A stretch of DNA of 31,488 bases from a virus (lineage: Duplodnaviria; Heunggongvirae; Uroviricota; Caudoviricetes), in IMG/VR virus record IMGVR_UViG_2778261316_000005; one strand, 5' to 3'. The translations under genes and the position numbers were made by a program. The notes under the pieces are model-generated. The model was not told the origin of the DNA, did not search any database, and saw nothing but the letters and a program-made list of their open reading frames with translations. Shown one piece after another: positions 1 through 23,422 of the stretch. Each line of letters begins with the position of its first letter. The stretch's first letter is position 1.

Positions 1-678
1 ATGTCAAAGACCACTTGCAGGAAATGTGGAAGCGAAGTAGAGCGAAAAGAGAAAAAATGCCCTTACTGTGCAGCAAAAAACCCAGGCATGAGATGGTGGA
101 AGCCGGTGATATTTATCATTGTCCTGGTCGCGCTACTCAAGGCTTGTTCGTACATACCTGATCCAGATCCGGCAAATCTTAGAAACAAAAATACCACCCT
201 CAAAGAATGGCGCAGCATGCTAAGAGATGACAGGTTGAAGTTTATTGATAGCTACCTTGCGCAAGAAAAAATCATCACCTCCGATACTGGTGGATTCTAT
301 AAATGCATCAGCCAGCACTCATATACGAAAAATGATGAGATTAAAGTTGATGAAGCTCTTGGCTGGTGTAAACAAGACTACCTTAAGAATCCCTCGGCTC
401 TATACCAGATGATTGATTTCGACAGATTTATCAGCAACACACGAAAATCTGACAGCTCTTACATCCCCATTACCAGGGATATAAAAAATAAGATGAACGA
501 CCCTTCATCATTCAAGCATCTTGAAACTAGCTATCGGTTTGTACTGGATAATTCAACACCGTATGCGATAGTCACCACGGTCTATCAAGGAAAAAATGCT
601 TACGGTGCGTCCGTCAAAAACTCGATAAAAGCCAAAGTTGACCTTTCCTCCGGCAGCGTAATTGAATATCTCAATTAA
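1..678 (+). CDS. hypothetical protein with N-terminal zinc ribbon (CxxC-x11-CxxC), one transmembrane helix and a ~170 aa C-terminal domain; AT-rich, probable cargo or host gene
   Basis: 225 aa ORF starting at nt 1 with ATG; MSKTTCRKCGSEVERKEKKCPYC followed by hydrophobic WWKPVIFIIVLVALL; GC roughly 40% versus mid-50s for the phage; followed by a hairpin terminator. Confidence 0.55.
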   Translation: MSKTTCRKCGSEVERKEKKCPYCAAKNPGMRWWKPVIFIIVLVALLKACSYIPDPDPANLRNKNTTLKEWRSMLRDDRLKFIDSYLAQEKIITSDTGGFYKCISQHSYTKNDEIKVDEALGWCKQDYLKNPSALYQMIDFDRFISNTRKSDSSYIPITRDIKNKMNDPSSFKHLETSYRFVLDNSTPYAIVTTVYQGKNAYGASVKNSIKAKVDLSSGSVIEYLN

Positions 679-2307: not shown

Positions 2308-3489
2308 ATGACCGACAACCTTTTCCACGGGGCGCGCACCAAAGAAAACACCGACCTCCAGACCGCGATCAATGACATTGATTCAACGGTCATTGGTCTG
2401 GTTGCGGTGGCCGATGATGCCGATCCCCTCACCTTTCCACTTGATACGCCAGTCCTGATCACTCGCGTGATTAGCGTGCTGGGTAAGGCGGGCAAAACAG
2501 GCTCACTGTATAAATCTCTCAAGGCTATTTCCGACCAGGTCAGCACGCGTGTAATTGTTGTTCGTGTCGCTGAAGCAAAGGAAGGAGAAAATGCCAAAAC
2601 GCAATCCCAGCTCATTATCGGTGGCACGCAGGCTGACGGAAGCTATACCGGGATGTTTGCCCTGTTGACCGCAGAGCAGAAAACCGGTTATCGCCCTCGC
2701 ATCCTCGGCATTCCGATGTACGACACGCAGGAAGTGACCGCACAGCTGCGCGTAATTGCGAAGCAGCTACGTGCATTCTCTTACAGCTACTGCGATGGCT
2801 GCGAGACTATCGCCGAAGCGAAAACCTACCGCGAGCAGTTCGCAGAGCGTGAAGGGATGATGATTTGGCCCAACTTCATCGCCTTCAACCCGCAGACCGG
2901 CGTTAATGAAGAATTCCCGGCTGTTGCCTATGCGCTTGGCCTGCGGGCACTGATTGATAATGAGCAGGGCTGGCACAAATCACTTTCTAACGTTGCGGTG
3001 AAAAACGTCCTGGGTATCTCTAAAGACGTGTTCTGGGCGTTACAGGCTGAGGACTCCGACGCTAACGAGCTGAACGCTAACGAGATTACCACGCTGATCA
3101 AACGCGATGGCTTCCGGTTCTGGGGTAACCGTACCACCGACACCGAAGAGTATATTTTCGAGGTGTTTACCCGGACGGCCCAAATTCTTGCGGACAGCAT
3201 TGCGGAAGCACAATTCACCACCGTGGACAAACCGCTTACCCCGGCTAACGTCAAAGACGTAGTAAGCGGGATCAATGCCAAACTTCAGGCGCTGGTCACT
3301 GCTGGCAAACTGATTGGTGCTGCATGCTGGTTTGATATTGTCGATAACCCGACCACCGGTATTCGCCAGGGTAAAGCTGTTGTTCGCTACAACTACAGCC
3401 CCGTACCACCGCTGGAAAACCTGACGCTGATCCAGACGTTTACCGATCAGTATTACGAACCAGCCTTTGCATCGCTGGGAGGTGCATAA
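2308..3489 (+). CDS. FI: contractile tail sheath protein gpFI
   Basis: 393 aa; strong similarity to P2 FI throughout (LRAFSYSYCDG..., GWHKSLSNV..., TTLIKRDGFRFWGNRT..., YSPVPPLENLTLIQ). Confidence 0.95.
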   Translation: MTDNLFHGARTKENTDLQTAINDIDSTVIGLVAVADDADPLTFPLDTPVLITRVISVLGKAGKTGSLYKSLKAISDQVSTRVIVVRVAEAKEGENAKTQSQLIIGGTQADGSYTGMFALLTAEQKTGYRPRILGIPMYDTQEVTAQLRVIAKQLRAFSYSYCDGCETIAEAKTYREQFAEREGMMIWPNFIAFNPQTGVNEEFPAVAYALGLRALIDNEQGWHKSLSNVAVKNVLGISKDVFWALQAEDSDANELNANEITTLIKRDGFRFWGNRTTDTEEYIFEVFTRTAQILADSIAEAQFTTVDKPLTPANVKDVVSGINAKLQALVTAGKLIGAACWFDIVDNPTTGIRQGKAVVRYNYSPVPPLENLTLIQTFTDQYYEPAFASLGGA

Positions 3490-4005
3490 ATGGCTATTCC
3501 GAAGAAACTCCGCCTGTTCACGATGTTTGTCGATGGCGACAACTACATCGGGAAGATCCCCAGCGTCACGCTCCCCAAAATTACCCGCAAAACGGAAGAT
3601 TATCAGGGTGGCGGGATGCTTGGCTCCGCTGCTGTTGACCTCGGCCTTGATTCAGGTGCACTGGATGCATCAATGGTTGTTGGCGGCATGGTCGAAGAGC
3701 TGATCCTGAAATGGGGCGGGGATATTGACGAACTACGCACGCGCTTTGTCGGTGAGATCTACAGCGGTGGAACAAGTTCCCTGCTTGAGGTCGAGATGCG
3801 CGGACGTATTACCGAAGTTGACCAGGGCGAAGCCAAGCAGGGTGATGACACCAGCCATACTTATGCGCTCAAAAATACGTATTACAAGCTCTCCGTGGAT
3901 GACAAGCCTTTGCTGGAAATCGACCTGCTGAACTTCATCTACAAGCGCAACGGCAAGAGTCTCTACCCGGACCGCATTGCGTCCGCCCTGGGCCTCGGCC
4001 AGTAA
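3490..4005 (+). CDS. FII: tail tube protein gpFII
   Basis: 171 aa; MAIPKKLRLFTMFVDG...VTLPKITRKTEDYQGGGMLGS matches the P2 FII N-terminus; RBS GGAGG upstream. Confidence 0.95.
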   Translation: MAIPKKLRLFTMFVDGDNYIGKIPSVTLPKITRKTEDYQGGGMLGSAAVDLGLDSGALDASMVVGGMVEELILKWGGDIDELRTRFVGEIYSGGTSSLLEVEMRGRITEVDQGEAKQGDDTSHTYALKNTYYKLSVDDKPLLEIDLLNFIYKRNGKSLYPDRIASALGLGQ

Positions 4006-4058
4006 TCTTTTTTAACCACTACCAATGGCGGCCAGCCTGGCCGCCCGGAGAAAGAATA

Positions 4059-4358
4059 ATGTCAGTAATTCTCAGCCAACCCATTAAACGCGGCGACCAG
4101 GAAATCAAATCCGTCGCAATCACCGACACAATCAAGCAGGCTGGCTCACTGCGCGGGCTGCGTCTGGTTGACGTTCTTAACTTCGACTATGACGCGGTAT
4201 CAACTCTGTTGACACGCGTCACCGCGCCTCAGCTGACAACCACTGATATTTCCTCAATGGCGACCGGCGACTTTACGGCGCTGTGCGAAGAAATCACGCC
4301 TTTTTTGACGAAAGCGGCGCCGTCCGCACCGAGCGAGGCGGCGACGGCGAGCAAGTAA
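4059..4358 (+). CDS. E: tail assembly chaperone gpE (zero-frame product)
   Basis: 99 aa; position between FII and tape measure; contains the slippery heptamer TTTTTTG at 4301-4307. Confidence 0.85.
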   Translation: MSVILSQPIKRGDQEIKSVAITDTIKQAGSLRGLRLVDVLNFDYDAVSTLLTRVTAPQLTTTDISSMATGDFTALCEEITPFLTKAAPSAPSEAATASK

Positions 4359-4531
4359 GAGAGGCAGTATTCAGCGATGTCGACGATCTGATCGCTGACA
4401 TCGCTGTGATATTTCACTGGCCGCCCTCCGAAATGCACAGCATGGAGTTGCGCGAGCTGATGGCCTGGCGCGAACGGGCGGCCATCAGAAGCGGTAACCA
4501 TGAGAAGGAGGATGACGACGATGGATCTTAG
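4059..4531 (+). CDS. E': gpE+E' fusion produced by programmed -1 ribosomal frameshift at TTTTTTG (4301-4307)
   Basis: The -1 frame continues open from the slippery site (…PF|FDESGAVRTERGG…) to 4531, overlapping the tape-measure start, as in P2 E/E'. Confidence 0.75.
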
Positions 4532-7493
4532 TATTCGCGTTGCGTTCAGTGCAATTGACAAGCTCACCCGCCCGGTCAGCGCCGCCAGTAAAGCCATTGG
4601 CGGCCTTTCTGACTCCCTCAAAAAAACACAGTCTTCCATCAGAGACCTGGAAAAAAGCGCAACGTCATTTGATAAGCTGCGCTCGCAAGCCAATGACACT
4701 GCGCAGAAGCTGAAAAGCACCCAGCGGGCCTTTGACGGTCTCAACCAGAAACAACGCGAAGGCGGCCAGCTTACTGAAGCCCAGACGGCACGACTTGAGT
4801 CGCTTCGCACCAAACTTTCCCGGCTGACTGAAACCTACAGCAGGCAAACGACGCAGCTGCGCACAGCTGCGCAGGCAGTGCGCCAGCATGGGGTTAACCT
4901 CACCACCGGCAGCGGCGCCATTCAGAGTGCCATCAGGCGTACGGAGCAATACAACCAGACGCTTGAGCGCGAACGTCGCCAGCTGGCAGCTACCCAGAAA
5001 GCCCAGGCCAGATACGATCGGGCAAAAGAGACTGCGGGCAAACTTCGCGGTGCTGGTATGGGTATGATGCTTGGCACTGCTGCTGCGGGCTATGCTGGCG
5101 GATCATTCCTGGCGCCTGCGATTGGTTTCGACGAGGAAATGTCACGTGTCCAGGCATTAACCCGCCTTAACAAAGACTCTTCCCAGATGGGAGATCTGCG
5201 GGCGCAGGCTAAAAAACTCGGTGCAGAAACCGCATTCACCTCACGCGATGCAGCCAGCGGGCAGGCATTTCTTGCAATGGCTGGCTTTACCCCAGAAGCT
5301 ATTCAGGCGGCATTGCCCGGCGTTCTGAATATGGCGCTGGCCGGCGGCATGGATCTTGGTGAAAGTGCCGACATCAGCTCCAACATTCTTTCGCAGTTCC
5401 GTCTCGATCCAAAGGAAATGGATCGGGTCAGTGATGTTTTGACCGCAGCATTTACCCGTACCAACACCGATTTAATGAACATCGGTGAGGCTATGAAGTA
5501 TGCAGGAACCGGGATGGCCGGTCTTGGCGTTGATGTTGAACGCACAACCGCCATGATCGGTGTAATGGCGAACGTTGGCCTGCGCGGAAGTATTGCAGGT
5601 ACGGGACTGCAAACCACCTTCTCGCGTCTGGCCGCACCAACAGGTAAAGCTCAGGCAGCCCTGAAAGAATTGGGCGTTTCTGTTGCCGATGCCACCGGAA
5701 AAATGCGACCGGCCGAAGTGGTCCTGTCTGATATTTATAAATCTATCAAAAAGTACGGTGACACAGACCAGTTGTCATTCTTCAAAGACATAGCAGGTGA
5801 GGAAGCAGCAAAGTCATTTCAGGCGCTGGTTAGATCGGCTGGTAGCGGTGAGCTGCAAAAACTCCTTGCCGATTTGCGCGGCTCTCAGGGTGAAGCGCAG
5901 AAGGCAGCGAAGGTCATGGCTGACAACCTCAGCGGTGATCTGAAAAACCTGGACAGCGCATGGGAGGGTTTCCGCATTCAGGTTGAGGAGACTGCCGACG
6001 GCCCTCTGCGCTCTCTCACTCAGGGGCTTAGCGATATGATCACCGCTGCCAGCACCTGGGTAAAAGAAAACCCCCGCCTGACACAAACAATCATTCTGGT
6101 TGTCGGTGGGGCACTCGCACTGGTTGCGGCAATTGGCGCTGCGTCACTGGCGATGGGTATTCTTATTGGCCCCCTCACCAAACTTCAGCTCGGTTTTTCA
6201 CTGCTGACCGGTGGTCGCGGGCTACTCGGCACCATTGCAGCTTTTCGCACTCTCGGCACTGTCGCGGGCCCGGCCATGGCGAACGTCAGAGGATGGTCCG
6301 TCGTACTGTCAGGAATCGCCCCTAACCTGGGAAGAATTTCAGCTATTCTCCCTGCGGTTCGCTCTGGTCTGCTTACCGCATTCCTGTCTCCTGGCGCACT
6401 TTTGGGATCGCTGACTAAAAACATTGGCATGTTGCTGTTGCGCCTCACTGGCTTGCCAGCAATCTGGGGCATGATCACCGGTGCGGTATCTATTCTTGGT
6501 GGGGCTTTATCTTTCTTACTCAGTCCAATAGGCCTGATTGGCGCCGCATTTGTCGCTGCGGGGTTGCTAATCTGGCGATACTGGGAACCCATTAAGGCGT
6601 TTTTCCTCGGTATGTTTACCGGAGTTATGCAGGCGATTTCACCTCTCAGGGATACCTTTGCCACCTTTTCCCCCATCTTTGACATGATCAGCAATGGGGT
6701 TAAATCCGTCTGGCAGTGGTTTACGAACCTCTTATCGCCAGTGCAGACCAGCAAGGAGACGCTTGATAAATGCACGAGCGCTGGGGAGACTTTCGGTAAC
6801 GTGCTCGGCGGGGCAATTAACCTTGTTCTGACCCCCGCAAAAATGCTCCTTGATACTTTAGGCTGGATACTCGAAAAGCTTGGCGTGTTACCCGATGAAG
6901 CAGAGAGGGCGAGCAAGAAACTGGATACCGCGAGAGCCAAAGCCAACGACCTGACTCCCAAAAAACCAGTTTCATGGGAGTGGGACCCACAGCAAAAGAA
7001 AATGGTCCAGAAGGAATGGAACTGGTCCCCCAAAAAAGCAGAGTCGCCAGTTGCTACTGGCGCACCACCAGGGGCCTCGCCACTGTCAGGAAATACCGGT
7101 ACGCAAAGACGTCTGCAAAGCATCGCAGACAATACAAAAGCAACCGCTGACAACACCAAGAAAGTCGGTCCGGGCGACATTATTTTCAAAAACCTGCCGC
7201 GTGCTCTGGCTTTGCGTGGCGCATACCAGGAAGCGCGTGTCACACCGCAATCAGTACCGCGAGTGGCAACACCCGCAGCTGGCGGCATTATTTCAGCGAC
7301 AGCAGCCACACAGGCTCCGGTATCAGCTCCTGTTACCGCTCCGACCGGCGGTGCCCCAGTTTTTAACATTACCTTTAACGATGTTGGTAAGCGCACGGAT
7401 CAGGAGCTGGAGAGAATGATGCGCAATGTTGTGCGTGATGCGATGGCCAGCACCGGCAGAATTAACCGTGGTTCTTTCCGCGACAGAGATTAG
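4521..7493 (+). CDS. T: tail tape measure protein gpT
   Basis: About 990 aa with coiled-coil N-terminal part, hydrophobic Gly/Ala-rich central segments and a C-terminal region; start placed at the ATG 9 nt after AGGAGG (the ORF is open from 4500). Confidence 0.9.
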   Translation: MDLSIRVAFSAIDKLTRPVSAASKAIGGLSDSLKKTQSSIRDLEKSATSFDKLRSQANDTAQKLKSTQRAFDGLNQKQREGGQLTEAQTARLESLRTKLSRLTETYSRQTTQLRTAAQAVRQHGVNLTTGSGAIQSAIRRTEQYNQTLERERRQLAATQKAQARYDRAKETAGKLRGAGMGMMLGTAAAGYAGGSFLAPAIGFDEEMSRVQALTRLNKDSSQMGDLRAQAKKLGAETAFTSRDAASGQAFLAMAGFTPEAIQAALPGVLNMALAGGMDLGESADISSNILSQFRLDPKEMDRVSDVLTAAFTRTNTDLMNIGEAMKYAGTGMAGLGVDVERTTAMIGVMANVGLRGSIAGTGLQTTFSRLAAPTGKAQAALKELGVSVADATGKMRPAEVVLSDIYKSIKKYGDTDQLSFFKDIAGEEAAKSFQALVRSAGSGELQKLLADLRGSQGEAQKAAKVMADNLSGDLKNLDSAWEGFRIQVEETADGPLRSLTQGLSDMITAASTWVKENPRLTQTIILVVGGALALVAAIGAASLAMGILIGPLTKLQLGFSLLTGGRGLLGTIAAFRTLGTVAGPAMANVRGWSVVLSGIAPNLGRISAILPAVRSGLLTAFLSPGALLGSLTKNIGMLLLRLTGLPAIWGMITGAVSILGGALSFLLSPIGLIGAAFVAAGLLIWRYWEPIKAFFLGMFTGVMQAISPLRDTFATFSPIFDMISNGVKSVWQWFTNLLSPVQTSKETLDKCTSAGETFGNVLGGAINLVLTPAKMLLDTLGWILEKLGVLPDEAERASKKLDTARAKANDLTPKKPVSWEWDPQQKKMVQKEWNWSPKKAESPVATGAPPGASPLSGNTGTQRRLQSIADNTKATADNTKKVGPGDIIFKNLPRALALRGAYQEARVTPQSVPRVATPAAGGIISATAATQAPVSAPVTAPTGGAPVFNITFNDVGKRTDQELERMMRNVVRDAMASTGRINRGSFRDRD

Positions 7494-7502
7494 GTGACGA
7501 TT

Positions 7503-7991
7503 ATGATGATGGTTTTTGGAATGTTCGTTTTTATGCTGCGCACCACCCCTTACCAGCAACTCCAGCACTCGCAGGAGTGGAGGCACGTAAAAAACGAGCG
7601 GGTTAACCAGTCAGCTGGCTGGCAGTACATTGGCGCCGGTGATGACAATATAACGCTGTCAGGCGTCCTTTACCCGGAAATCACCGGTGGAAATCTCTCG
7701 CTGTCAGCCCTTGAAACTATCGGCTACGCAGGGCGCCCATGGCCCCTTATTGAGGGTACGGGGCGTATTTATGGTATGTACGTTTTAACACGTCTGGAGC
7801 GGGGCAAGTCCGAGTTTGACCGATTTGGGAATCCAAAAAAAATCGAATTCACCCTCAGCCTGAGCCGTGTCGATGCGGATTACAGGGAGAAGCTACAAAG
7901 CTCGACCGTCAGCGATGCCCTGGCGGGGTTAAAGACGAGTGCAAATAATGCGATAAACCAGGTGAAAGACTCGCTCAACGGCCTGTTTTAG
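7503..7991 (+). CDS. U: tail protein gpU
   Basis: MMMVFGMFVFMLRTTPYQQL...WRH matches the P2 U N-terminus (MMMVLGLFVFMLETAPFQEL); AGGTGA RBS 5 nt upstream. The ORF-track GTG at 7494 lies inside the RBS. Confidence 0.9.
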   Translation: MMMVFGMFVFMLRTTPYQQLQHSQEWRHVKNERVNQSAGWQYIGAGDDNITLSGVLYPEITGGNLSLSALETIGYAGRPWPLIEGTGRIYGMYVLTRLERGKSEFDRFGNPKKIEFTLSLSRVDADYREKLQSSTVSDALAGLKTSANNAINQVKDSLNGLF

Positions 7992-7998
7992 TGATGCC

Positions 7999-8567
7999 TT
8001 AAGCCCCTTCATGTTCCCTTCTTGCTGAAGGGAACTTTTTATAAAGCGTCGACATTCCGACATCAAAAATAATAGCCACCCGCTGTCGTTTCTCCCCTGC
8101 GGCTATCAGTCTTCCCGCCTGTTCCCATTGCTGCTTTGTCAGTTTAGGTCGCCTCCCGCCTATCCTTCCTTCTGCGCGGGCAGCAACCAAACCGGTGCGG
8201 GTGCGCTCAACGATTAACTCTCTCTCCATTTCTGCCAGCGCCCCATGACGTGAAAGAAAAAGCGCCCCATAGGTGTTGAGGTATCAATGCTGTCTGTCAG
8301 GCTGCGGAAGTTAACACCGCGATTGCGTAGCTCTTCGATCATTGTCACCAGGTGTCGCATGCTCCGCCCGAGACGATCAAGCTTCCAGACAACCAGCGTA
8401 TCCCCCTCCGATAAGGTCCGTAATAAACGCTTAAGGCCCGGCCTTTCCGCTTTTGTTCCGCTTATTTTGTCTTCAAATATTTGTACACATCCTGCGCTTT
8501 CCAGTGCATTTCTTTGCAGCGCGGTGTTCTGGTCATTTGTTGACACCCTTACATAGCCGATCAGCAT
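7999..8567 (-). pseudogene. Hin/Gin/Pin/Cin-family serine DNA invertase, split by a 1-nt frameshift (or homopolymer sequencing error)
   Basis: The N-terminal ORF (8214-8567) has the catalytic motif YVRVSTNDQ and ...MGRFFFHVM; the C-terminal ORF (7999-8229) has the HTH domain ...ALAEMERELIVERTRTGL... in another frame. One base is missing in the run at 8241-8244; the joined product would be about 189 aa. Confidence 0.8.
8013..8040 (+). terminator. intrinsic terminator of the FI-U operon
   Basis: Stem GTTCCCTT / AAGGGAAC with a 7-nt loop followed by TTTTT, 22 nt after the U stop; it lies inside the 3' coding end of the minus-strand invertase. Confidence 0.6.
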
Positions 8568-8673: not shown

Positions 8674-8699
8674 TTCCGGCAAACGTTGGTTTAGGAGAT
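8674..8699. other. gix/hix-like 26-bp invertase crossover site (left boundary of the invertible segment)
   Basis: TTCCGGCAAACGTTGGTTTAGGAGAT resembles the gix consensus TTCCTGTAAACCGAGGTTTTGGATAA; lies between the invertase start and the promoterless alternative fibre tip. Confidence 0.6.
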
Positions 8700-8729
8700 A
8701 TCAGTGCTACAGGTGTTGCGACAGGTAGT

Positions 8730-9065
8730 ATGGGCGGAACCGGATATGCCATATTTCCGATGATGATTGGCGGTGCACGTAAGACTTTTATTATGCAATG
8801 GGGATTGCTGACGCCTCTGAAATCAGGTGGCTATGTGAATATTAACCTTCCTGTCGCTTTTCCTACTATGGTGATGCAGGCATATGCAACACATGATAAT
8901 GCGACACTAAACACACGCCCGACAGTATATGCAATTACTACAACAAGCCGAACCACTATCACTGCGACGGCGACGTGCTTAGATGCTGGCTCAGTGGGCG
9001 CTACAGTGACACGCAGTAGTGACGATACTGCGTGTTACGGTCGTTATTTTGCAATAGGGTGCTGA
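8730..9065 (+). CDS. alternative tail fibre C-terminal variable cassette (Sv'-like), silent in this orientation
   Basis: Reading frame is open back to the left gix-like site (…PANVGLGDISATGVATGSMGGTG…), with no start or promoter of its own; Gly/Thr-rich fibre-tip-like sequence; directly followed by an assembly gene. Confidence 0.55.
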   Translation: MGGTGYAIFPMMIGGARKTFIMQWGLLTPLKSGGYVNINLPVAFPTMVMQAYATHDNATLNTRPTVYAITTTSRTTITATATCLDAGSVGATVTRSSDDTACYGRYFAIGC

Positions 9066-9066
9066 A

Positions 9067-9510
9067 ATGAATCTTAAATATTTTTCTCCATCTGAAAATG
9101 CGTTTTATGCCGGGGAGCTTAAAGAAAGCTATATCGCTGCTGGCTCATGGCCTTCTGATGCCTCGGAGGTTGATGAAAGTCTTTATCTTGAGTTTATCGA
9201 TAAACCGCCAGCAGGTAAGTATCGAGGAGTGGATAATGCAGGAATGCCCTGCTGGCTTGAAATTCCTCCTCCCACAGTAGAGGAAATGGCATCGAATGCA
9301 GAGAATATAAGACAGCAGCTCATTGATAAGGCAAATGTTTATATAAACAATCGTCAGTGGCCGGGAAAAGCAGCGATAGGCCGTTTAAAGGCAGATGAAC
9401 TGGAACGATATAACCTTTGGCTGGATTATCTGGACGCACTGGAACTGGTCGATACTTCCGGTGCGCCAGATATTGAATGGCCTACGCCTCCGGCAGCTCA
9501 GGCCAGATGA
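9067..9510 (+). CDS. tail fibre assembly protein (alternative, U'-like)
   Basis: 147 aa; C-terminal ...DTSGAPDIEWPTPP motif shared with the other tfa (…TAPDVIWPELP); 3' ends of the two genes overlap convergently. Confidence 0.8.
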   Translation: MNLKYFSPSENAFYAGELKESYIAAGSWPSDASEVDESLYLEFIDKPPAGKYRGVDNAGMPCWLEIPPPTVEEMASNAENIRQQLIDKANVYINNRQWPGKAAIGRLKADELERYNLWLDYLDALELVDTSGAPDIEWPTPPAAQAR

Positions 9511-10084
9511 CATCCGGCGCGGTGCTGGTATCCGTTGCCGTCACCGCGTCAATGTAATCCAGCACAGCGTTTAATCGGGTGGTTTCTGTCTGCGTCAGCT
9601 TCCTCCCGGCCTGCAATTTCAGTTGAATCAGACTAATGGAAGCCATTGCAGTATCAATCAGTGACTGACGCTGTGCTTCTGCCGCGCTTACTGCGGCGCT
9701 ATGCTGTGCCTCAGTATCTGTCACCCATTTCTCACCATCCCATTTATCGTATGGCGTTAACGGGGCGATAGTGGTTGTATTTTCGGGGTAATCACCCAGA
9801 GCTGTGATTTCTTTGGCGTCTCCCGTTTCGGTGTTATAGACGATTTCACCGCGATGGTCTGGCACATATTCCCATGAGTTTAAATCTGCCGAACGGCAGA
9901 TTGCATAACCAGCCTTATGTATACCAGGTTCATCCAGACAGGAATATGCCGGGATACCAACACCAACGGCAAGATATTCATTTGAAGTGGAAATATATTC
10001 CCGAGTTTCACCATCATAGCTATAGACGGTAATATCCCCCGCCTTCGTGGCAATAAGCTCGCTATTTAATACAGCGTTATCCAT
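9482..10084 (-). CDS. G: tail fibre assembly protein gpG
   Basis: 200 aa immediately downstream of H (TAATG overlap); tfa-type C-terminal motif. Confidence 0.85.
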   Translation of the reverse strand: MDNAVLNSELIATKAGDITVYSYDGETREYISTSNEYLAVGVGIPAYSCLDEPGIHKAGYAICRSADLNSWEYVPDHRGEIVYNTETGDAKEITALGDYPENTTTIAPLTPYDKWDGEKWVTDTEAQHSAAVSAAEAQRQSLIDTAMASISLIQLKLQAGRKLTQTETTRLNAVLDYIDAVTATDTSTAPDVIWPELPEA

Positions 10085-11370
10085 TATGCAGCCCTCACGA
10101 TAAAGTTAAATGCAATATTTCGCGCACGTGTTTCCGTTGATGTTCTGGCAACAAGTGATGCATCAAAATAATAATTCGCCTGTTTATATGTACCACCTAT
10201 CGCAATTGGTGTGAGATTTGGTTGCACTATTGAAGAGGTAAATGCGCCGAAAGTATTATTATTTGTCCCCGTGGTCATATCAAAAAAGCTACCTGTAATA
10301 TTTTGCAGCGTATCGCTCTGAGCACTCAATAACGCTCGCCCACTGTCCACTCCACGCCCATCATCCCAGCCACGAATAAACTCACCCCGCAGATCTGGCA
10401 GCACAAGACCGGGGTAAACCAGTGCCAGCTTCGGATAATTTTCAGCTGCAAATGGAGCGCCGTTACATTTCAGCCATCCTGTTGGTGGAGTGGCTAAAGG
10501 CCACGGAACAGGCACACCAACGGGTAATGCCGAACCTTCTCCCAAACCAAGGTTTTGGAGAAACTTCGCCACGTCAGGAATATCCCCGCCGTTTTGGCCT
10601 TTCTGCATCGCCCCGGTAATTCGAGCATCATCCCCCGAGGCTACCGTTCCGGCCGTTGTTCCAACATTTCGCGTCGAGCTGTCACCCAGCTCTAAATTCT
10701 GCCGTGCTAATGCGGTATCGGGTAAGTCCGACAGGTTGCGATCTTTTGCCAGCCGTGCGCTCCCGTTATCCATCGCAATTTTAACGGCCTTCGATGTTGC
10801 CGCCTGCGACTCGCTGTCACTGGTCACACTGCTGCTGAGCTGCACAAACCCTTTCTCTGTCGTTGACGCATCCGGGTGATTACGTGACTGCTCATGCGCG
10901 CGCAGCTGGCTGTCAACATACTGGCGTGTTGCCAGAACAACAGCCGGATCAATCTTCAACGTAACGGCTTCGGTGCTGCTGACAATCAGGATCACGCGAA
11001 TAACCTGAACGCGCCCGCTCCCCTCCTGCAACTGAGGCTTATAGGTTTCTGCGCAATTGGCAATCGCCACCATATCGCCATCTTTATCGAAAAGGCCGAT
11101 CTCACGAATCCACCACCCGCCGACGTCTTCCGGTATGACCTGTTCCGCAATGATCTGGCTGGCGTTCGCCGGGTCCACCGTCAGCATATTCAGAGGGGCG
11201 CGGCGTAACTCATGTACGAGGGCAGTTTGCGCCGGATTCGGTGTAGGCAGTACACCATTGCCATCACCAACGGCCAGCTGGGTAATCTCAACTTTCGTAC
11301 CCAACGCCGTGGCTTTTGCCAGTTTTGCCGCCCCGATATTGGTCAACAGGGCAAGATATTTAGTCGCCAC
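10084..11370 (-). CDS. H: tail fibre protein gpH (constant N-terminal part plus the currently expressed variable tip)
   Basis: N-terminus ...GAAKLAKATALGTKVEITQLAVGDGNG...HPDASTTEKGFVQLSS resembles P2 H; start placed at GTG 11370 with a GGAG RBS (the ORF track extends to a TTG at 11391). Confidence 0.9.
   Translation of the reverse strand: MATKYLALLTNIGAAKLAKATALGTKVEITQLAVGDGNGVLPTPNPAQTALVHELRRAPLNMLTVDPANASQIIAEQVIPEDVGGWWIREIGLFDKDGDMVAIANCAETYKPQLQEGSGRVQVIRVILIVSSTEAVTLKIDPAVVLATRQYVDSQLRAHEQSRNHPDASTTEKGFVQLSSSVTSDSESQAATSKAVKIAMDNGSARLAKDRNLSDLPDTALARQNLELGDSSTRNVGTTAGTVASGDDARITGAMQKGQNGGDIPDVAKFLQNLGLGEGSALPVGVPVPWPLATPPTGWLKCNGAPFAAENYPKLALVYPGLVLPDLRGEFIRGWDDGRGVDSGRALLSAQSDTLQNITGSFFDMTTGTNNNTFGAFTSSIVQPNLTPIAIGGTYKQANYYFDASLVARTSTETRARNIAFNFIVRAA
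10537..10562. other. gix/hix-like crossover site inside tail fibre gene H (right boundary of the invertible segment)
   Basis: TTCTCCCAAACCAAGGTTTTGGAGAA; its reverse complement matches the left site at 19 of 26 positions with the same central TT, and the codon phase is the same (N-L-G-L-G versus N-V-G-L-G). Confidence 0.6.
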
Positions 11371-22794: not shown

Positions 22795-23027
22795 TCTCCT
22801 GGCCGCATCGTCATTTCTGGCGGTGCGGTACCACCCTCAGCACCATCATTTCCGGCCATATCGGCCACTCGCGAAACACAAATAAACCACACCCCCTACC
22901 AGACGCAGCCAGCGGGCTTCTGGCGCGACTTCTCTCGCGCTGCCGCTTCGCTCAACCATCAACATGAGCGCCCGACAGGCGGCGAATGGCGGATGATATG
23001 ACCCCCTGCCTGACCCCCTTTGCGCGC

Positions 23028-23047
23028 GCTTGCTCCCCCGCCTCGCC
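23028..23047. other. cos site (P2-type 19-nt cohesive end region), intact in the prophage
   Basis: Minus-strand reading GGCGAGGCGGGGGAGCAAGC closely resembles the P2 cohesive end GGCGAGGCGGGGAAAGCAC; located between Q and the early region as expected. Confidence 0.6.
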
Positions 23048-23066
23048 TGCGCGCTAAACCGACCTC

Positions 23067-23170
23067 TTTTTGTGCACTTTGTGCAGGCCGCCCAGGCCCC
23101 GCCAGCGCTGGGGCGGCATGGAAAAAACGTTGTTTCAAAAATTGTGCAAATTTGTGCAACTTTTTGCATC
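23067..23170. repeat. cos-proximal direct repeats of TTGTGCA (putative terminase recognition, cosB-like)
   Basis: Four to five copies (tttgtgcac, tttgtgcag, attgtgcaa, tttgtgcaa, ttttgcat) within about 100 bp next to cos; ACCCCCT-type repeats on the other side (22890-23020). Confidence 0.5.
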
Positions 23171-23185
23171 CGCGCGGCCCCATTT

Positions 23186-23422
23186 TTACACCTGATCAAC
23201 CTCGCCGAGCGCCACCATGATCGCCAGGCGTTCGGCAGGCGGTAACGCTGCAAATTTTTCCTTCCAGCGCTGCGCTTTTCGCTTAATTCGATAGCGATCA
23301 TTGTAATTTTTACCTGCAAAAGTATGCGGATAAGCGCGCCCCTCCTGGTAGTTCATCCAGATTTTCTCCGTCCTCACCCCGCCGCGCGTCATTGCCTGAA
23401 ATTCTTTGCTGCGCCAGCCCAC
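23186..23422 (-). CDS. hypothetical protein at the position of the P2 tin/old accessory locus
   Basis: 78 aa ORF between the A-linked small gene and cos; no recognisable family; basic. Confidence 0.4.
   Translation of the reverse strand: MGWRSKEFQAMTRGGVRTEKIWMNYQEGRAYPHTFAGKNYNDRYRIKRKAQRWKEKFAALPPAERLAIMVALGEVDQV

Follow-up and report, generated by a model that had tools for sequence, protein, structure and literature searches.

A P2-like Escherichia coli prophage with a frameshifted Pin-like invertase gene and an invertible tail-fibre segment, probably inverted in trans

The tail-fibre locus and its invertase gene

The window, i.e., the whole stretch of 31,488 nucleotides analysed here, is a complete P2-like prophage of Escherichia coli inserted beside fieF-pfkA. 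The host is E. coli, since the fieF-pfkA flank of locus L004 (GCA_002537655.1) is 99% identical to E. coli; L004 itself matches the window with 100% identity across 4.6 kb. Pfam searches of L004 and of the open reading frames (ORFs) of the window identified the P2-type genes gpO/N/M/L, V/W/J/I/H, FI/FII/E/T/U/D, ogr, gpA, cox, C, and int. A Dam-type methylase is also encoded in the window. Compared with the canonical P2 order, the block of sheath, tube, gpE, tape-measure, and gpU genes (2308-7991, plus strand) is inverted, and it is convergent with the invertase gene (8567-7999, minus strand). The genes for gpD and ogr are located beyond the inverted FI-to-U block, on the other strand, and the same arrangement was found in all relatives seen (L001, L002, and L004). 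A scan for promoters and terminators gave nothing informative. Inside the 3' end of the invertase gene, just past the gpU stop, there is a terminator-like hairpin (8013-8035, plus strand) that would serve the plus-strand tail operon. Two ORFs, 1-678 (plus strand, 225 aa) and 22846-23319 (minus strand, 157 aa), had no match in Pfam or PADLOC. The former is located beside ogr at the prophage end and the latter between the portal gene and gpA; P2-like phages often bear accessory or defence cargo at such positions.

Reading of the minus strand together with the ORF list identified a serine invertase gene of the Pin/Gin type, which is broken into two pieces of 117 and 76 aa (Table 1). The two ORFs overlap by 16 nt. 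The longer piece starts with MLIGYVRVSTNDQ and carries the catalytic Ser in the motif YVRVSTNDQ, which aligns with Gin and Pin. Its native part ends with MGRFFFHVMG, followed by the out-of-frame tail RWQKWRES and a stop. The N-terminal resolvase-type domain of the Din family, with its nucleophilic Ser near residue 9-10, is therefore present in the gene. Pfam assigned Resolvase (PF00239, E=2e-40) to the 117-aa piece and HTH_7 (PF02796, E=1e-13) to the 76-aa piece.

Table 1 Features of the invertase gene and the tail-fibre segment in the window
Feature	Position	Strand	Description
5' invertase fragment	8214..8567	-	117 aa: 110 native and 7 out-of-frame residues, then stop
3' invertase fragment	7999..8229	-	76 aa, MERELIVERT..., other frame; remaining helix E and HTH_7
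G4 run, site of the 1-nt deletion	8241..8244	-	G5 in intact relatives; between codons Gly110 and Ala111
Crossover site R	8674..8699	+	TTCCGGCAAACG TT GGTTTAGGAGAT; central TT at 8686-8687; 107-132 nt upstream of the invertase start
Crossover site L (within the tail-fibre gene)	10537..10562	-	TTCTCCAAAACC TT GGTTTGGGAGAA; central dinucleotide at 10549-10550
Invertible segment	8686..10550		1865 bp; similarity to relatives stops or flips exactly at the borders
Expressed tail-fibre gene	10084..11370	-	428 aa, collar-type C-terminus, equals P0028; constant part upstream of site L
Tail-fibre assembly gene, expressed cassette	9482..10084	-	200 aa, Caudo_TAP
Tail-fibre assembly gene, silent cassette	9067..9510	+	147 aa, Caudo_TAP
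Silent alternative fibre C-terminus	8686..9065	+	Gp53-like_C

An earlier reading of this DNA from its sequence alone (hereafter the sequence-only reading) attributed the break to one base missing in the CCCC run of the plus strand. This run corresponds to GGGG on the coding strand, in the context CAC GTC ATG GGG CGC TGG. The comparison with close relatives confirmed the claim, as four Gs (G4) are found here and five (G5) in every intact relative. In the alignment with L001, the closest intact E. coli relative (96% identical), the deletion point reads GGGGG and the ORF is 570 nt long. The expectation that one added base would restore an intact ORF of 189 aa also proved right: insertion of a single G gives a 189-aa ORF containing HVMGALAEMERELIVERT. 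After this repair, the protein has 84% identity to PinE of e14 and aligns to the crystal structure of Gin (3UJ3) over residues 1-185 (E=3e-91).

The sequence-only reading further held that both domains are intact, only in different frames. This does not hold for the catalytic domain. PF00239 reaches as far as residue 135 once the protein is repaired, and helix E, a part of the catalytic domain, is therefore severed by the frameshift at codons 110/111. In serine recombinases, helix E forms the dimer/tetramer interface and connects the DNA-binding domain with the catalytic core. As neither helix E nor the DNA-binding domain remains on the catalytic core, both fragments should be inactive, judging from established knowledge of serine recombinases. 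By normal translation, the G4 gene cannot produce a full-length enzyme, and it lacks the single polypeptide of about 185-195 aa on which helix E and HTH_7 are joined in the Din family. The 5' part of Din invertase genes is expected to contain a Fis-dependent recombinational enhancer; the 5' 320 nt of the gene are the same as in intact relatives except for a few SNPs.

The tail-fibre region next to the invertase gene has the layout of an invertible segment. Its crossover sites, R and L, are 26 bp long each and lie in inverted orientation; on the plus strand, their central dinucleotides read TT and AA, respectively. Local alignment around the points where the window ceases to resemble its relatives revealed both sites. 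A generic inverted-repeat search missed them because the sites share just about 12-18 nt. The core AAACSWWSGTTT has only two exact matches within the 31-kb window, namely sites R and L. Site L contains TTGGTTTGGGAGAAGG, the exact crossover repeat published for e14 (PMC12529663), and the e14 sites CTCTCGAAAACCTTGGTTTGGGAGAA and TTCTCCCAAACCAACGTTTATGAAAA have their inner halves and central dinucleotides in common with sites R and L. Across loci, the outer half-sites are constant and the inner half-sites move with the segment, which is the pattern predicted by exchange at the central dinucleotide. Inversion in silico joined the silent end in frame and gave a fibre of 399 aa. Judged from their sequence, all cis parts of the switch are intact, including the two sites, the two fibre-end cassettes, and the two assembly genes. 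The segment should hence still be invertible, though not by the product of its own gene. In some relatives, variant inner half-sites occur (GGATTT... and CAATTG... versus GGTTTG...; L003:8478-8503, L001:4024-4049, and L006:323-348), and the segment of L003 has a single assembly gene. This suggests rearranged or decaying switches.

Orientation of the segment in prophages with the frameshifted gene

The invertase gene differs by 0-1 SNP among 15 G4 loci, and all retrieved G5 loci differ from the G4 haplotype at at least 8 sites. The sole SNP among the G4 loci is located at gene position 372 and changes Ala124 to Thr; the window carries T124. Ala124 is kept in every intact copy examined and also in Gin and Pin. 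The repaired A124 protein is identical to an intact invertase of Enterobacter cloacae, and the repaired T124 protein had no occurrence among about 15 billion proteins. The simplest history would thus run from G5/A124 to G4/A124 and then to G4/T124, the frameshift having arisen once and then been passed down within a group of E. coli prophages that are almost identical. A replacement such as A124T, at an otherwise invariant residue and after the frameshift, is as expected for a pseudogene.

For the case of a genuine frameshift, the sequence-only reading regarded the tail-fibre switch as locked in its present orientation unless another invertase acts in trans. For the lineage, a locked switch is unsupported, as the same cassette lies opposite ways in the G4/T124 loci L016 and L009. 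In L009, which has its G4/T124 gene on the same contig, the cassette adjoining site R is the one that adjoins site L in L016 and in L007 (also G4/T124), reversed and with 1 mismatch in 707 nt. The contig of L009 spans just 820 nt upstream of the gene; L009 is 98.8% identical to L019, which has the same orientation. A second pair is formed by L014 (GCA_012832195.1) and the G4 locus L015, in which the constant DNA is identical over 6835 nt and the segment runs the other way over 978 nt, with 1 mismatch. The contig of L014 ends inside the segment, short of the invertase gene. In-silico inversion of L005, which is on the same contig as L015, yields a fibre equal to that of L014 (P0032). The occurrence of a segment in both orientations, a mark of Din-family switches, was found for the cassettes of these two pairs, and the window's own segment was seen in one orientation only. 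Since L009 and L016 both carry the derived G4/T124 gene, the frameshift seems to have been followed by at least one inversion.

The starts of three further contigs fall near site R. Exactly 31 nt (one k-mer) precede the outer half of the site in the Logan contigs L010 and L011 (k=31), and exactly 56 nt (a k+1-mer) precede it in the SPAdes-style contig L012 (k=55). Such starts are read as a branch of the assembly graph at the crossover point, where the inner end is joined to two outer flanks. They are supportive only, since another prophage of similar sequence in the sample could also break the contigs there.

Alternatively, the switch may indeed be locked, and the opposite orientations may result from replacement of the segment by homologous recombination, or from transfer of G4 by gene conversion, instead of site-specific inversion. 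The segments of the G4 loci are mosaic, with at least six types that are 78-96% identical to each other, on flanks that differ by 0-1 SNP. The segments compared were those of the window (8686-10550), L005, L016, L018, L019, L002, and L003, with 0-1 SNP per 2.5 kb of backbone. This pattern implies very frequent cassette exchange between prophages, so a difference in orientation alone proves little, and a cassette in opposite orientation could have been imported, not flipped. In keeping with a locked switch, the protein collection contained no flipped fibre for the window's own segment, the best full-length match being 77% identical. Moreover, when pinE is deleted in K-12, the e14 segment stays in a single orientation in laboratory culture (PMC12529663). 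Nevertheless, divergence like that among the other segment types would be expected of imported cassettes, whereas the cassettes of L016/L009 and L015/L014 differ by a single mismatch each and the long flank of the latter pair is identical. The reversed similarity also breaks exactly at the 26-bp sites, and three contigs break at the k-mer boundary of the crossover. A locked switch is accordingly considered unlikely.

The caveat attached to the sequence-only reading, that another invertase might act in trans, has become the favoured explanation, given the cassette in both orientations among G4/T124 loci and sites near-identical to those of e14. In the proposed mechanism, the catalytic core has lost helix E and the DNA-binding domain through the G5 to G4 deletion at codons 110/111, and a related Din-family invertase from another resident element, e.g., Pin of e14, would invert the segment in trans. 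No second serine recombinase was found within the window. DNA similar to pinE is present in 2724 of the 5426 complete E. coli genomes. PinQ of prophage Qin was shown to invert the e14 segment (PMC12529663), and the same paper, referring to earlier work, states that Pin complements gin and hin (refs 64-65 of PMC12529663). The identity of the repaired protein to PinE, its match to the Gin structure, the similarity of the sites to those of e14, the abundance of pinE-like genes, and the cross-action of PinQ and Pin together make a donor in trans plausible. We infer that a trans-acting invertase caused the inversion, and the switch is probably flipped now and then by the recombinase of another prophage. 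On balance, it is more likely than not that this P2-like prophage, whose own invertase became a pseudogene by a G5 to G4 deletion of single origin, has kept its cis parts and has been inverted since the frameshift, most likely in trans by a Din-family invertase. A more far-reaching proposal is that of an orphan switch, which would flip only with a foreign Din invertase in the cell, the recurrent loss of the cognate invertase being selected to hand over or freeze control. This proposal is tentative and should be regarded as doubtful.

Status of the invertase gene

Inversion in trans has also to be weighed against a leaky self-rescue of the broken gene. If tRNA-Gly slipped by -1 on A_UGG_GGC, moving from GGG to the GGG that overlaps it, a little full-length invertase would be made, enough for rare inversion. 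Perfect re-pairing in the P site is possible, and the next codon would be GCG, with the exact wild-type reading restored. As the reaction rates of invertases are very low, a small amount of protein might be sufficient. The X_XXY_YYZ heptamer is absent, however, and the RNA folding of the region is not more stable than that of shuffled sequence (z=+0.42). The other members of the family have G5 and need no frameshift, hence there is no conserved programmed event, and the T124 that replaces the Ala of every intact copy fits relaxed selection. Self-rescue is therefore improbable. Programmed -1 ribosomal frameshifting as such was rejected in view of the missing slippery heptamer, the missing stimulatory structure, and the single-frame homologues.

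The sequence-only reading offered two branches for the missing base, a genuine frameshift or a sequencing error. In the second case, G4 would be an artefact of sequencing or assembly, and the true sequence would be G5 with an intact gene. The indel does sit in a homopolymer, and another G run close by is 1 nt short in L002, a related long-read-style assembly. Nevertheless, the exact 117-aa product, including its out-of-frame tail, is encoded by 22 or more contigs, which come from independent NCBI, Logan (single runs), and ENA assemblies; a second count of the exact sequence gave 13 contigs. G4 is the same in at least 15 loci from varied assemblers and sources, among them k=31 de Bruijn contigs of 8-32 kb without SNPs. 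It is also perfectly linked to one haplotype, which was never retrieved with G5, the T124 haplotype with G5 being absent from the collection. As G4 is tied to one haplotype and recurs in k-mer-exact short-read contigs, the artefact was rejected as very improbable. The population evidence thus decides for the genuine frameshift and against the sequencing error. The invertase gene is, on this comparative evidence, a true pseudogene with an inherited deletion.

Searches of other collections gave the following results. The G4 allele was not found in a scan of JGI metagenomes, nor in any of 5,426 complete E. coli genomes. A scan of species-representative genomes for the allele returned only an intact copy of Yokenella, and the 8 loci of the invertase gene in IMG/VR are all G5. 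A variant of the same haplotype, the Logan protein P0125 (135 aa), has HVMVALAEMERELIVE followed by a further frameshift. This points either to a frame-restoring insertion in the G run with a second indel after it, or to an error-prone assembly. Phase variation by tract length, as in a homopolymer contingency locus, was rejected as well. Contingency loci have a long tract, usually of at least 7, whose length varies among close relatives, whereas the tract here has just 4-5 G and a constant length within the haplotype (G4 in 15/15 loci, G5 in the other haplotypes).

Finally, the 117-aa and 76-aa fragments could be thought to assemble into a split but working invertase, given that both ORFs are open and that the second starts at Met114, aligned with Gin position 114, and overlaps the first stop, so translational coupling is possible, but the break falls within helix E (PF00239 to residue 135), the interface and linker helix, and this idea is hardly credible; to our knowledge, there is no split serine invertase.

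Invertase genes are also broken or missing in other members of this phage group. A different 1-nt deletion, from G4 to G3, is found at about codon 100 in L002 (L002:6299 region), a loss of 2 nt in the (GA)n run at MERE in L027, and a frameshift in a T-run in P0123. Some of these three may be sequencing errors. A look-up with the gpU protein gave 506 blocks, mostly unrelated family members, as this protein is very widespread. Among the loci with an identical gpU protein, 5/10 (L032, L033, L034, L037, and L038) are without invertase or second cassette, and L035 of the same set has a 90-aa invertase remnant adjoining an acyltransferase gene. Comparison of these loci indicates that invertase loss is recurrent in this phage group.

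Comparison with known switches and significance

The closest known system is the Pin/P segment of e14. It shares with the present locus the constant fibre N-terminus, followed by a site, two convergent cassettes each with an assembly gene, a second site, and the invertase. The inner half-sites and central dinucleotides are also the same, and the proteins correspond closely after repair (see above). In contrast to e14, which is a cryptic remnant with an intact Pin, the present switch belongs to a complete P2-like prophage, and the 1-nt deletion makes a single polypeptide impossible. Gin of Mu, Cin of P1, and Hin of Salmonella, likewise of the Din family, are serine invertases of about 190 aa acting at 26-bp imperfect palindromes centred on a 2-bp crossover, and in Mu and P1 the switched parts are tail-fibre ends, as here. 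These systems differ from the present one in that the gene is frameshifted here. In every cis feature tested, the switch is of the Pin/Gin/Cin/Hin kind; it departs from them only in the requirement for a contiguous enzyme. The action of PinQ on e14 (PMC12529663) is similar to what is implied here, namely control of an invertible tail-fibre segment by an invertase whose gene lies in another part of the genome. In K-12, however, PinE is intact and PinQ is additional, whereas here the cognate gene is dead and the putative foreign driver would be the sole one.

For annotation, the two ORFs should be described as a frameshifted pseudogene of a Pin-like invertase and not as two small proteins, and the neighbouring tail-fibre region as an invertible segment with intact cis sites. 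The system is of a known kind, an ordinary pseudogene with a small twist. It opens no new question but adds a defined natural set of strains in which trans-activation can be measured. If the orphan-switch proposal were true, the choice of tail fibre by one prophage would be set by the invertase repertoire of the prophages residing in the same cell. The lineage represents a natural experiment, in which the own invertase was lost and both orientations are still seen. As the action of PinQ on e14 does experimentally, it supports a cross-talking network of Din-family switches in E. coli.
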